Part shown: positions 1,238-4,686 of the stretch, in pieces
Layout of the letters: every line of letters begins with the position of its first letter
How positions within the stretch are numbered: position 1 is the first letter of the stretch
DNA from: Halarcobacter sp.
Lineage (GTDB): Bacteria; Campylobacterota; Campylobacteria; Campylobacterales; Arcobacteraceae
DNA: 64,000 nt
Assembly (NCBI GenBank): GCA_048571215.1
Contig: CP182352.1
Span: 2,592,001-2,656,000 of the forward strand
Reading direction: 5' to 3'
Position numbers and translations under genes: made by a program
The notes under the pieces: model-generated
Told to the model about the DNA's origin: nothing
Database searches by the model: none
Seen by the model: the letters and a program-made list of their open reading frames with translations, nothing else

Positions 1238-1927
1238 CTATTTTGTTTTTTTATTTGTGACTAAACCTGGTCTATAATATCTTGTTTTGCAAATAGCCAG
1301 ATTATTTTTCAAGTCGGCAATTTTACTATGATTTCCCTTTAAGAATTCTTTAACTACACTTAAATTTTGGAAATTTTCAGGTTTCGTAAAAGATGGAGCT
1401 TCTAAAAGATTATTTTCATAACTTTCCATCACTAAAGAATCAGCATTTCCAAGTACACCTTCAACATTTCTAGAAATAGCATCTGCCATGACTAAAGATG
1501 GCAACTCTCCACCTGTAAGTATAAATTCACCTATACTAAACACTTCATTTGCATATTTTTCTATAACTCTCTCATCAATTCCTTCATATCTTCCACTTAC
1601 AAAAACAATATTTTTTTTCTTTGCCAATCTTTTTGCATCATTTTGTCTAAATGGTTTTGCAGCTGCTAAAGGAAATATAATATATGCATCTTTATTCTCT
1701 TTTTTTATTGTGTCTAAACAATCAAATAAGGGTTGTGGGGTCATTAACATTCCTGCACCTCCACCTATCATTTGTTTATCAACCTTATTGTGTTTATTTG
1801 TTGTAAAATCTCTTGGATTATAAAATTCATAATTTATAAATCCTGATTCAACTGCTCTTTTTAAAATTGAATCATGAAAATAATACTCTATTAAATTTGG
1901 GAATAATGTTACAAAACTAAATTTCAA
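1238..1927 (-). CDS. trmD: tRNA (guanine-N1)-methyltransferase TrmD
   Basis: [33 protein letters not shown] motifs; TTG start. Confidence 0.97.
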
Positions 1928-2023
1928 TTTCTTACCTATAATATTTTTTGAAAACTTATTATATTCATTTTTATTTAATATTAAGCATAGTTGATTTATA
2001 TTTCATTTTATAAAGGTGTATTA

Positions 2024-2386
2024 TTGAAGTATTTAAGAGGTTTTAGAAAAAACTATTTTTCATTGTCAGCAATTACTGCTTTTTCTACTGCAAAAAAATT
2101 GCAGGATAAATTGTTGCACTTTAAAAAATCAAACTTTTTCTCTTTTTCATATGATTCTAAGGAAGAGGAATCTCCCCCTGATGATGAGTTACTACTACAA
2201 ACATCTTGCCTAACATTAAGCAATAAACCATGCCATTGTGATTGTGTATTTAGATTAAAAACAAAATTAGCAATTGTAAATTTCAAATTTATTCCAAGAT
2301 GTCCTTTTTATACCACTTATTTTGCATTTAGAAGAACTGGTGTTCACCCTCCATTTAATTTATCCCAAAATCACATAAACAAATAA
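2024..2386 (+). CDS. Putative regulatory leader protein (uORF) upstream of metE, with CHCDC cluster and C-terminal RRTGVHPP motif
   Basis: 120-codon open frame in AT-rich DNA; TTG at 2024 follows AAAGGTG (2012-2018); stop is 20 nt before the metE ATG on the same strand. Confidence 0.7.
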   Translation: MKYLRGFRKNYFSLSAITAFSTAKKLQDKLLHFKKSNFFSFSYDSKEEESPPDDELLLQTSCLTLSNKPCHCDCVFRLKTKLAIVNFKFIPRCPFYTTYFAFRRTGVHPPFNLSQNHINK

Positions 2387-2406
2387 AAATAAATAAAGGA
2401 TAAATA

Positions 2407-4686
2407 ATGTCTACAAAAAGTTATGTTGTAGGTTTTCCAAGAATAGGAGAACAAAGAGAGTTAAAAAAAGCACTAGAAAGCTTTTGGTCAAAAAAATCTA
2501 GTTTTGAAGAACTAGAAAAAGTTGCTAGCAAGCTAAAAAAAAGACACTGGGAGTATCAAAAAAAAGCAGGTATTGAATATATAAGTTCAAATGACTTTTC
2601 TTTATATGACAATATATTAGATACTTGCATTATGTTAAATGCCATACCAAAAAGATTTCAAAATTTAAAAGCTGAGGAGCTTTATTTTTCTATGGCAAGA
2701 GGTAATAAAGATTGTGTAGCAATGGAGATGACAAAATGGTTTAATACAAACTACCATTATATAGTCCCAGAGCTTAGTTTAGAAGATCAATATAAACTAA
2801 ATGCTTCAAAAATAATAAATGAATACAATGAAGCAAAACAACATGGTATAAAAACAAAAATCAATTTAATTGGTCCTATCACATTTTTAGGACTATCAAA
2901 AAGAGTTGATGGTGGAGATACGTTTGAGTTATTATCAAAAATTATTCCTGTTTATATTGAACTTTTAAAAAAGATTTCAAAACTTGATGAAATTGTAACA
3001 GTTCAGATTGATGAACCACTATTATCAAAAGATAATAAAGAAAAAGTGTTAAGTTTAATAAAACCAAGTTATGATAACTTAGGAACTGTTGCAAACAATA
3101 TTAAACTAATTGTAACTACATACTTTGAACACTCAAATGAAGCTACAAAAATCTTAATCAATACTCCAATATGGGCACTTGGTTTAGACTTTTTATATGG
3201 AAAAAACAATTTCAAAGTATTAAAAGAGATTGCTTATAGTAATAAAAAACTTATTGCTGGTGTTGTTGATGGAAGAAATATTTGGAAAAATGATATTAAA
3301 AAGACACTAAAGCTTCTTGATCAAATCTCCAAATTTGTTCCTAAAGAGAATATTTATATCTCATCATCTTGTTCACTTTTACATACTCCATATACACTTA
3401 AATATGAAAACAATATGGATAAAAATATTAAAAACTGGCTAAGTTATGCAGTAGAAAAACTTGATGAGATAAATTTAATATCAAAAACCTTTTTTAAAGG
3501 TTCTGATAAGTTATCTTCAGATGAACAAAGAGCTTTTATTGAAAACGTAAAAATAAATGAGAGTAGAAAAACCTCTGAACTAATTCATAATAAAGAGGTT
3601 CAAAATAGAGTTGCTAATTTTAAAAAACTATCAAGAGATGGAGATTTTAATGAAAGAATTAAAATCCAAAAAGAACTTTTACAATATGAAGACTTAGCAA
3701 CTACAACTATTGGTTCATTTCCCCAAACTCTAGAAGTTAGAAAATCAAGAAGGGATTATAAAAATAAAGAGATCTCTTATGAAAGCTATGAAAAAGATAT
3801 GAAAAACTATATTGATGATTGCATTGCATTTCAAGAGGAGTGTGGACTTGAAGTTTTAGTTCATGGGGAACCAGAAAGAAATGATATGGTTGAATATTTT
3901 GGTGAACAATTAGATGGTTTTGCCTTTTCTCAAAATGCTTGGGTACAATCTTATGGTAGTAGATGTGTAAAGCCCCCATTTATTTTTGGAGATATTAGTA
4001 GACCTAAAGCTATGACAGTGGACTGGATTACCTATGCTCAAAGTAAAACTTCAAAAATTATGAAAGGGATGTTAACAGGTCCTGTTACAATTCTTAATTG
4101 GTCATTTGTAAGAGATGATATGCCAAGAAGCGAAGTTTCAAAACAAATTGCTATTGCACTTAGTGATGAGATTGATGATTTACAAAAAGCTGGAATAAAA
4201 ATCATTCAAGTTGATGAAGCTGCTTTTAAAGAAGGATACCCTTTAAGAAAAGAAAATATAAAAGCTTATGAAGATTGGGCAGTTAGAGATTTTAAGATTT
4301 CAGTTAGTAGTGCTAAGAGACAAACACAAATACATACACATATGTGTTACAGTGAGTTTAATGATATTATAAAAACAATCGAAGCTATGGATGCAGATGT
4401 TATTTCAATTGAGACTGCAAGAAGTGGGAATGAACTACTTAAAATTTTTAAAGAAGTGGGATATAAACAAGAAGTTGGTCCAGGAATTTATGATATTCAC
4501 TCTCCAAGAGTTCCAAGTGTTGATGAGATGGTAAAACAGATTAAACTATTATTAGAAGTATTACCAAAAGAACAATTATGGATAAATCCAGATTGTGGTT
4601 TGAAAACAAGAAAATGGGAAGAGGTAAACTTGAGTTTAAAAAATATGGTTGAAGCTGTAAAAATAATAAGAAAGGATTATAGATAG
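2407..4686 (+). CDS. metE: Cobalamin-independent methionine synthase
   Basis: GFPRIG, MTKWFNTNYHY, TTTIGSFPQT, HGEPERNDMVEYF, Zn-ligand motifs THMCYSE and NPDCGLK; 759 aa. Confidence 0.98.
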   Translation: MSTKSYVVGFPRIGEQRELKKALESFWSKKSSFEELEKVASKLKKRHWEYQKKAGIEYISSNDFSLYDNILDTCIMLNAIPKRFQNLKAEELYFSMARGNKDCVAMEMTKWFNTNYHYIVPELSLEDQYKLNASKIINEYNEAKQHGIKTKINLIGPITFLGLSKRVDGGDTFELLSKIIPVYIELLKKISKLDEIVTVQIDEPLLSKDNKEKVLSLIKPSYDNLGTVANNIKLIVTTYFEHSNEATKILINTPIWALGLDFLYGKNNFKVLKEIAYSNKKLIAGVVDGRNIWKNDIKKTLKLLDQISKFVPKENIYISSSCSLLHTPYTLKYENNMDKNIKNWLSYAVEKLDEINLISKTFFKGSDKLSSDEQRAFIENVKINESRKTSELIHNKEVQNRVANFKKLSRDGDFNERIKIQKELLQYEDLATTTIGSFPQTLEVRKSRRDYKNKEISYESYEKDMKNYIDDCIAFQEECGLEVLVHGEPERNDMVEYFGEQLDGFAFSQNAWVQSYGSRCVKPPFIFGDISRPKAMTVDWITYAQSKTSKIMKGMLTGPVTILNWSFVRDDMPRSEVSKQIAIALSDEIDDLQKAGIKIIQVDEAAFKEGYPLRKENIKAYEDWAVRDFKISVSSAKRQTQIHTHMCYSEFNDIIKTIEAMDADVISIETARSGNELLKIFKEVGYKQEVGPGIYDIHSPRVPSVDEMVKQIKLLLEVLPKEQLWINPDCGLKTRKWEEVNLSLKNMVEAVKIIRKDYR

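Follow-up and report, generated by a model that had tools for sequence, protein, structure and literature searches.

Known systems and the leader upstream of metE

In its working principle, the upstream open reading frame (ORF) described here would most resemble three leader peptides, CutF, CruR and SecM. It precedes metE, the gene encoding the cobalamin-independent methionine synthase, in a 64,000 nucleotide (nt) stretch of the Halarcobacter sp. genome (GCA_048571215.1, contig CP182352.1, forward strand positions 2,592,001 to 2,656,000), hereafter called the window; positions without a locus or genome label are those of the window. We hold, with moderate confidence, that this leader ORF encodes a translated, cis-acting peptide that gates the translation of metE, and that the signal is most likely cobalamin or corrinoid status.

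CutF of Rhodobacter capsulatus, a DUF2946 peptide encoded upstream of cutO, stalls the ribosome at a C-terminal Pro-rich motif, and the stall melts a stem-loop that shields the ribosome binding site (RBS), as described in the CutF preprint. The leader has a similar outline, with a possibly signal-peptide-like N-terminus, a Cys motif, a C-terminal Pro-Pro (PP) and a predicted helix that would shield the Shine-Dalgarno (SD) sequence. It differs in that no sequence relation was found (no Pfam hit at E <= 1), in having HPP in place of PPP and a CxCxC pattern of cysteines, and in being followed by metE and not by a copper oxidase gene. Copper induces both stalling and expression in the CutF system, whereas the ligand would act as a repressor here.

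CruR of Bordetella pertussis, also a DUF2946 peptide, is encoded upstream of the TonB-dependent transporter gene bfrG, and its ligand relieves the arrest at the C-terminal motif so that the downstream genes are switched off (PMC9426467). A TonB-dependent transporter is thus regulated there, as genes for such receptors are found downstream of short paralogues of our leader, and the repression by vitamin B12 that we propose below would follow the same logic. CruR has a RAPP motif, a CXXC and Rho-dependent termination, whereas the motifs here are [HAS]PP or [SDA]PP, the short leaders are without a Cys motif, and a helix that would sequester the SD is predicted for the metE type. None of the marks of DUF2946 was found: Pfam gave no match, the cysteines form C-H-C-D-C plus a distant Cys instead of CXXC or CXXXC, the gene downstream is metE and not a copper gene, and the paralogues are followed by genes of the cbi and btuB-like kinds.

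An N-terminal localisation signal and an arrest motif that ends in Pro are shared by SecM and the RAPP-like (RQH) peptides, which are encoded ahead of secA, secDF and yidC; in SecM, the downstream SD is held in a stem-loop that the stalled ribosome opens. The RQH motif is given as (R/Q/H)-(A/G/D)-(P/G/S)-(P/G) (PMC10987492 for all of these statements), a pattern into which V-H-P-P does not fit. These peptides monitor the secretion machinery, whereas the leader precedes the gene of a cytoplasmic enzyme and its family is attached to B12 genes.

The regulation of metE, btuB and cbi genes by cobalamin is a standard example of riboswitch control, and the gene set under B12 riboswitches comprises metE, btuB, the cbi/cob genes and cobalt uptake. 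The leader family shares with the cobalamin riboswitch (RF00174) this gene set, the 5' position and the expected output, which is masking of the RBS. It differs in that the conserved element is a translated peptide and not a structured RNA. In Bacillus clausii, metE is reportedly preceded by tandem S-adenosylmethionine (SAM) and adenosylcobalamin riboswitches that provide two-input control. The metE leader here also looks modular, with an N-module shared with B12 genes and a metE-specific C-module; control in B. clausii is based on RNA, and a two-input reading of our leader is speculation.

An initial annotation of the window had described the ORF as a candidate ribosome-arrest switch on metE, akin to the DUF2946 and RAPP-like leaders. 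Its translation, its tie to metE, its PP end followed by a variable tail and its SD helix were supported by the comparisons, and the proposed kinship was not. The annotation had also known of no description of such a switch; we found none in the literature either, most papers in subscription journals being outside the search.

Conservation and translation of the leader

The leader ORF is encoded on the plus strand at 2024-2386. It has 120 codons, starts with TTG and ends with a TAA at 2384-2386, and the frame is open from 1991. A Shine-Dalgarno sequence, AAAGGTG, can be read at 2012-2018. A 20-nt spacer separates the leader stop from the ATG of metE at 2407, and metE itself (2407-4686, plus strand) matches Pfam Meth_synt_1 (1.4e-122) and Meth_synt_2 (4.6e-148). 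The SD, the start codon, the length, the stop, the gap and the CHCDC and RRTGVHPP motifs lie where the initial annotation had placed them.

A search of the translated frame against 61 related genomes (E <= 10) gave matches in 48, approximately 30 of them strong. The arrangement of leader followed by metE was retained in the 20 loci that were fetched. In all 20 orthologous loci the frame is open through ...FKFIPRCP[FY]Y..[YFC]FAFRR[TS]G[VI]HPP, in DNA of about 27% G+C, and continues after HPP with 1-11 unconserved codons and a stop that is always TAA. Since the frame is open through PP in every one of these loci, the internal stops reported in the genome search most likely fall in the tail after PP. 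In the alignment of the 20 intergenic regions, an AAAGG or AAGGAG block precedes the start codon, and the start column is aligned as TTG, GTG or ATG followed by AAR. The DNA conservation has a three-base period and breaks off just past the PP codons.

A codon alignment of 73 orthologues has 26 columns in which at least 90% of residues are identical, and the entropy of these columns at the first, second and third codon position is 0.16, 0.06 and 1.00 bits. The median ratio of nonsynonymous to synonymous substitutions (dN/dS) is 0.33 over 1910 leader pairs, and switches between TCN and AGY codons for Ser and between TTR and CTN codons for Leu are present. The frame is conserved in relatives and is more than a chance one, being open in 20/20 loci with variation dominated by the third codon position. 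An invariant Pro-Pro motif, conserved synteny and a dN/dS below 1, which the initial annotation had named as support for its proposal, were all found. As far as sequences can tell, the comparison shows that the leader ORF is translated and that its peptide is under selection.

A database search gave 310 proteins at E <= 1e-3; a Pfam domain is lacking in all of them, and any that are named go by 'hypothetical protein'. The motif FA[FY]RRxGxHPP is present in 120/120 of the relatives listed, and the tail behind it has 1-17 residues. When 1.84 billion representatives were searched with a profile, 178 clusters were obtained. Scanning the 131-amino-acid frame gave no family in Pfam-A at E <= 1 and none in NCBIfam at 1e-5.

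The leader is linked to metE throughout. In 78 of 80 named loci metE lies downstream on the same strand, and the remaining two loci end at contig edges. The genera represented include Arcobacter, Halarcobacter, Aliarcobacter, Poseidonibacter, Sulfurovum, Sulfurimonas and Sulfurospirillum. The gene upstream of the leader varies, and trmD, its neighbour in the window, is present in only part of the loci. Among the 61 relatives, every metE-bearing genome of the same family has the leader (29/29), and no long leader was found in the eight members of that family that lack metE. Beyond this family, metE is present in 14 genomes; five gave clear matches and G045 gave a weak match (E = 0.0019) adjoining its metE. 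G045 was fetched again along with eight outside-family genomes that had no match beside metE, and leader-like ORFs were then found upstream of metE in G045, G046 and G054, which brings the count to 8/14. Of 33 further long leaders, 30 have metE downstream, two are at a contig edge and one precedes a TonB-dependent receptor. Across the genomes compared, the leader is thus shown to be strictly tied to metE and to lie directly upstream of it.

Three loci deserve mention for their layout. In L016 (G005:C1:1316000-1319329) the leader is intact and metE is apparently broken; metE was recovered as three tblastn pieces, and the Meth_synt_2 match holds one TGA, two TAG and two TAA codons. In L073 (3327-3438) the leader has no stop for 36 codons past HPP and crosses the metE start codon. 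L180 (G258:C1:153200-158400) encodes a long SPP-type leader, ...YTRSTLSPP followed by 16 residues, and its stop overlaps the start of a receptor gene as ATGA.

Short paralogues and cobalamin genes

The N-terminal motif of the leader, RGFRKNYFSLSAITAFST (residues 5-22, 2036-2089), appears signal-peptide-like and was delimited by alignment with short leaders. According to the alignments, it is common to the short leaders of cbi/btuB operons and to the N-termini of BtuB-like receptors.

The short leaders came to light as weak matches to residues 1-60 elsewhere in the relatives. They are short paralogues of 52-65 residues with the consensus MK[HN]L[RK]GY.K[RK]YF[SK]L[AS].IAMYST..KL...N..YH..., and they end in [S/D/A]PP plus 0-15 residues. 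A profile of the short leader matched 112/301 genomes of the order at E <= 0.01. Matches with E below 1e-13 (34 places) were taken as the short type; the weaker matches are metE-type long leaders and the N-termini of receptor frames of 640-690 amino acids (E = 1e-5 to 1e-3). The terminal PP is at residue 49 (23 sequences) or 50 (10 sequences) in 33/33 unique short leaders. The 16 conserved columns have an entropy of 0.24, 0.04 and 1.20 bits at codon positions 1, 2 and 3, the same signature as in the metE type, so the short leaders are translated as well.

The 30 best short-leader loci were fetched and 27 could be parsed; L128, L134 and L144 were left out of the tally of downstream genes. In these 27 loci the next gene encodes a CbiM-like protein (13), a TonB-dependent receptor (12) or an SsuA-like binding protein (1), and one leader is at a contig edge. 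CbiM-like proteins matched PF01891 in 4/4 scanned examples that had been fetched earlier, and next in the CbiM operon come CbiK and a corrin methylase, alongside CobB and CbiC. Five of the 13 tallied CbiM-like proteins were scanned and their only NCBIfam matches were weak CbiM matches, far below the cut-offs; the other eight were assigned from a conserved MHIE N-terminus. For the receptors, the best NCBIfam matches were the vitamin B12 receptor models TIGR01779 and NF007926 in 10/10 tested (nine of the 12, plus the receptor of L031), with all scores below the curated cut-offs. In L031, one leader precedes the receptor, which is followed by Peripla_BP_2, an ATP-binding cassette (ABC) ATPase and FecCD, that is, a BtuFCD-like transporter; a second leader precedes DUF4198 and CbiM.

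Most short leaders (L028-L034, L119-L148) are without an SD, and a -10-like box, TAAAAT or TATAAT and often with TG in front, ends 6-7 nt before the ATG. This arrangement suggests that they are encoded on leaderless mRNAs.

In one family of the order the genes are arranged as BtuB-like receptor, leader and metE (L163, L168, L169, L171, L179, L181, L185 and L186), and the receptor in these loci carries the leader N-motif in its own N-terminus, MKFAKGFKGRYFSLAAIAATVSC. Because of this gene order, and because the N-termini of BtuB-like receptors carry the N-motif, we speculate that the leaders may derive from the 5' end of a btuB-type gene.

A helix between the Pro-Pro codons and the metE Shine-Dalgarno

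The initial annotation had seen that the codons at and after PP are complementary to the metE SD and start codon. Folding recovered this complementarity, which co-varies across loci. Within 2342-2418, positions 2352-2355 and 2358-2365 are predicted to pair with 2398-2409 (GGAUAAAU plus AAUG, including the metE start codon). The anti-SD arm (2352-2365), identified from folding and co-variation, consists of the last Pro codon and the first four tail codons, and the 3' arm (2398-2409), identified from folding, holds the metE SD (GGAT) and the start codon. This segment folds with -5.54 kcal/mol against a shuffled mean of -2.46 (z = -1.95), and 7/200 shuffles fold at least as well, which makes this single case borderline.

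We divided the 78 loci by the distance from PP to the metE ATG into short-spacer loci (n=51, 44-80 nt) and long-spacer loci (n=27). In the short-spacer loci the lowest-energy fold is almost always a long-range hairpin between the tail after PP and the metE SD, closed over an A-rich loop. The sequences of the arms vary by species while complementarity is kept, as in TTATCCT/AGGATAA, CTATTTCCT/AGGAAATAG and TTAATTAATCT/AGGATTAATAA, and the duplexes average -8.0 kcal/mol vs -5.2 for shuffles (mean z = -1.8). Where the spacer is long, the same outer helix often encloses inserted GC-rich hairpins, and the HPP codons (CAYCCUCC) frequently pair with AAGGAUG. Hairpins of this kind, for example GGTTCC(T)nAAAGGGAACC, lie just before the metE SD in L078, L098, L054 and L088, and could be terminator-like elements or repeats. 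Taking all loci together, the lowest-energy fold pairs the SD core with a partner upstream in 63/78, and in every one of these the 5' arm begins within 9 nt, on either side, of the point where the PP codons end (-9 to +9 nt).

Co-variation was tested with the 58 of 78 loci that remained after dereplication. Duplexes of each SD with its own partner reach -7.77 kcal/mol vs -6.33 for swapped partners (z = -7.2, 0/5000 permutations as low), and z = -7.0 is obtained with the tail alone; relatedness inflates such tests to some extent. By this comparison, the PP and tail codons and the metE SD are shown to form a co-varying helix, as predicted from the sequences. The placement of the presumed stall site fits a ribosome that would disrupt an SD-masking structure.

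The helix is equally compatible with plain translational coupling, in which any ribosome that reaches the end of the ORF opens it, with no regulated arrest and no ligand, and this counts against the arrest reading. The position of the helix at the ORF end is what coupling would predict, and the overlapping ATGA in L180 and the leader of L073 that runs over the metE start are also in its favor. It leaves unexplained that the last 24 residues before the variable tail are invariant at the peptide level, that PP is fixed at residue 49-50 in the short paralogues, and that the family marks the B12 gene set. We regard coupling as an unlikely explanation of the locus.

Anatomy of the leader peptide

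Downstream of the N-motif, an acidic stretch, EEESPPDDELLL (2162-2197), contains a first Pro-Pro, P51-P52, at 2174-2179. Across the long leaders this first PP falls at residues 50-55, as far from the N-terminus as the terminal PP of a short leader. It is followed by a Cys/His cluster, KPCHCDC (2225-2245), in which C70-C74 form CHCDC (2231-2245). C72 never varies in the alignment of metE-type leaders, in which K68, P69, C70 and C74 are conserved in 90% or more of the sequences. The cluster is particular to metE-type leaders and absent from the short leaders, and its cysteines are replaced in some members (CHCDG in L017, YHC in L004 and L008). The most conserved block, FKFIPRCPFYTTYFAFRRTGVHPP (2282-2353), is invariant or nearly so in 20/20 loci and in 120/120 of the proteins listed. 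It ends in RRTGVHPP (residues 103-110, 2330-2353), the HPP codons of which (2345-2353) are the proposed pause site. Variants of this final motif are YSFRRSGIHPP, CRCRKTKTG[LI]APP and ..NS[IVS]SPP. The tail after PP, 10 codons in the window (2354-2383), has no conserved sequence among the relatives.

In brief, the N-module of a long leader consists of the N-motif, approximately 27 residues and the acidic stretch with PP at residues 50-55, and the C-module consists of KPCHC[DN]C, a basic helix, IPRCP[FY]Y and FAFRRTGVHPP. The long leader looks like a short leader to which a C-terminal module has been added, and ORFs that hold the C-module alone are also found upstream of metE in some genomes.

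An AlphaFold model made from an alignment of 102 leader sequences has a mean predicted local distance difference test (pLDDT) score of 73, a predicted template modelling (pTM) score of 0.40 and no compact fold. Helices are modelled at residues 14-44, 54-64 and 73-89, and pLDDT reaches 91 within residues 11-30; the last 30 residues, which are invariant, are modelled as coil with pLDDT 57-61. The N-terminus is similar in sequence to the signal-peptide-like N-termini of BtuB-like receptors, but its hydrophobic stretch is short.

These features can also be read as those of a stand-alone Cys/His-rich protein that is co-expressed with metE, either a helper of MetE that binds Zn, Co or a corrinoid, or an exported peptide. 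The conservation over 110-120 amino acids with four conserved Cys and one His, the three modelled helices with their well-scored residues 11-30, and the likeness of the N-terminus to the signal peptides of BtuB-like receptors would all suit such a protein. The low pTM and the lack of a compact fold would not, and the best-conserved segment is the one modelled as coil. Nor does a stand-alone function account for conservation that stops abruptly at PP before a tail of varying length, for an anti-SD arm that falls on the PP and tail codons and changes in step with the SD, or for short paralogues that keep the N-motif and PP without the Cys cluster. The chance that the leader is such a protein therefore appears small.

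The Cys cluster is the basis of another reading, in which the peptide, while still nascent, would respond to Zn, another metal or the redox state of thiols and so tune the Zn-dependent MetE. The CHC(D/N)C and RCP cysteines are conserved in metE-type leaders, they are specific to these, and ORFs with only the C-module occur upstream of metE. Described nascent peptides do sense metals: CruR senses copper via its Cys motif (PMC9426467), and CutF senses periplasmic copper (CutF preprint). No Zn-related gene context was found at the loci, whereas the family is linked to cobalamin genes, and the cysteines are replaced in the three leaders named above. The initial annotation had listed Zn and thiol redox among the possible signals; nothing we found points there, and the context of the paralogues and the lack of a riboswitch point to cobalamin. 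As the sole signal we find a metal or redox input improbable. It could be compatible with B12 control as a second input, and because the cluster is specific to the metE leader and absent from the short paralogues, a second, metE-specific input besides cobalamin, acting via the cysteines, may exist.

Cobalamin riboswitches

A scan of 1800-2600 with all of Rfam gave nothing better than E = 3.2 and no match to a riboswitch family. The cobalamin models RF00174 and RF01689 have no match at E <= 1 in the whole genome of this strain. RF00174 matched in one of the 61 relatives, and the same search matched 7/14 control genomes. The sole cobalamin riboswitch among the relatives is L118 (G004:C14:17162-17296, minus strand, 67 bits). 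A scan of 20 long-spacer loci at Rfam gathering thresholds gave only thiamine pyrophosphate (TPP) riboswitches, on the opposite strand, in two loci. Both are Sulfurovum-type loci, and these riboswitches lie on the minus strand upstream of the leader (L071 2536-2652, L087 2717-2883).

We rejected a riboswitch as the controlling element given the lack of an Rfam riboswitch match at the locus, the absence of RF00174 and RF01689 from the genome and the protein-type codon pattern. That an unrecognised structured RNA lies here and the open frame is incidental is very improbable: the 479 nt between trmD and metE make for a long 5' region, metE is among the classical targets of riboswitches and the short paralogues appear to begin at the first base of their transcripts, but the codon pattern with its Ser TCN/AGY and Leu TTR/CTN switches, the frames open in 20/20 loci at about 27% G+C and the best Rfam E-value of 3.2 all speak for a protein.

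Transcription of the locus

The gene upstream of the leader, trmD (1238-1927, minus strand; Pfam tRNA_m1G_MT), is separated from metE by 479 nt. A consensus scan for promoters gave three sites in the region against 5.3 expected from shuffles. One candidate on the plus strand (1975-2002) consists of TTAATA, a spacer of 16 nt and TATATT, and a transcript from it would begin approximately 10-15 nt before the leader start codon. A second plus-strand candidate is at 1995-2024. The same scan found no promoter-like site on the plus strand between the leader and metE. No terminator-like site was found by scanning 1800-2500, and transcription attenuation was rejected for this reason. Neither is the leader a classical attenuation leader of the trp/his type: the leader peptide in the window has no internal Met codon, and the same interval holds no terminator-like site.

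The region was recovered from one metatranscriptome run, and two further runs of the same study gave nothing. The RNA contigs cover 1456-1927 and 2093-3275 and leave 1928-2092 uncovered. The contig at 2093-3275 bridges the leader and metE, a weak hint of co-transcription. The other contig stops exactly at the trmD start codon (1927), which may hint at a very short or absent 5' untranslated region of trmD.

Proposed mechanism

We suggest that a ribosome pausing while the Pro-Pro codons occupy its decoding centre would cover the 5' arm of the helix, since a ribosome with codons in its P and A sites covers roughly the next 12-15 nt. The pause would free the metE ribosome-binding site and metE would be on. 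If the ribosome instead runs on and terminates, the helix would re-form and metE would be off, and Rho-type polarity could reinforce this state. The length of the pause would be set by cobalamin status: by the logic of CruR, B12 would shorten the pause, the helix would close and metE would be switched off. Arrest at PP and sensing of cobalamin are what we infer from sequence comparison.

We favor cobalamin as the signal because paralogous leaders precede cobalt-uptake, cobalamin and BtuB-like genes, and because a cobalamin riboswitch is lacking. With the B12-dependent metH in the genome, it would make sense for metE to be switched off once B12 is at hand. For the sensing part, the best candidate is the N-motif, which would just have emerged from the ribosome as PP is decoded; a model in which it is read on leaving the exit tunnel fits the fixed distance between N-motif and PP.

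Several observations weigh against this account. At the RNA level, the fold at the locus in the window is borderline by itself, the SD is not paired with the tail in 15/78 loci, and the duplex signal in the long-spacer loci is weak (mean z = -0.7). The CbiM-type short-leader loci show little or no SD pairing, and for this reason SD-unmasking may not be general to the leader family. The RNA contig that spans the leader and metE begins at 2093, inside the ORF, and can neither place the transcript start nor exclude DNA in the library. As to the arrest motif, the V-H-P-P of the leader departs from the RAPP-like motif defined by experiment, the variants are [IL]-A-P-P, x-S-P-P and x-D-P-P, and none of the sequences examined has R, Q or H in first position. 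The assignment to B12 genes also has weak points. As given above, the BtuB-like receptors score below the curated cut-offs. One short leader precedes the SsuA-like binding protein, and the 652-amino-acid TonB-dependent receptor behind the long leader of L180 has no NCBIfam hit at 1e-30 and is therefore untyped. A six-frame motif scan of this genome found the metE leader and no other copy, and the BtuB-like receptor of this genome (628 amino acids; L150, G000:C1:1285635-1290398) has no leader. Finally, 6/14 metE-bearing genomes outside the family have no leader-like ORF within 700 nt upstream of metE. It should be noted that the receptor gene of L150 lies downstream of a histidine kinase and response regulator pair.

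One route from B12 to the pause was dropped. QueG is a cobalamin-dependent enzyme of tRNA queuosine formation, and B12 could have acted through it at a His or Asp codon before PP; 17/33 short leaders have Ser and 5/33 have Ala at this position.

A wider proposal is that the Campylobacterales replaced the B12 riboswitch with a nascent-peptide sensor, in which the N-motif, newly out of the ribosome as the PP at about residue 50 is decoded, perceives cobalamin directly or via a partner and so determines how long the pause lasts, and in which the metE leader is a tandem form. We put this forward as a tentative and rather doubtful idea. In the tandem, the N-module would report B12 and the C-module (CHCDC ... 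FAFRRTGVHPP) would report metal, methionine or SAM status, which is speculation.

Significance

A whole bacterial order appears to be without the cobalamin riboswitch, and translated Pro-Pro leaders occupy the same positions. The leader ORFs are annotated as 'hypothetical protein' or not called at all, which leaves the B12 regulons of this phylum invisible to riboswitch-based annotation. Cultivable hosts exist in Arcobacter, Aliarcobacter, Sulfurimonas and Sulfurospirillum. If the tandem reading with B12 and a second input were true, the leader of metE would do with a peptide what tandem riboswitches do with RNA. A response of the family to B12 would make it the first case of a nascent-peptide system linked to a vitamin cofactor, and peptide and RNA would be two solutions to the same regulatory problem.

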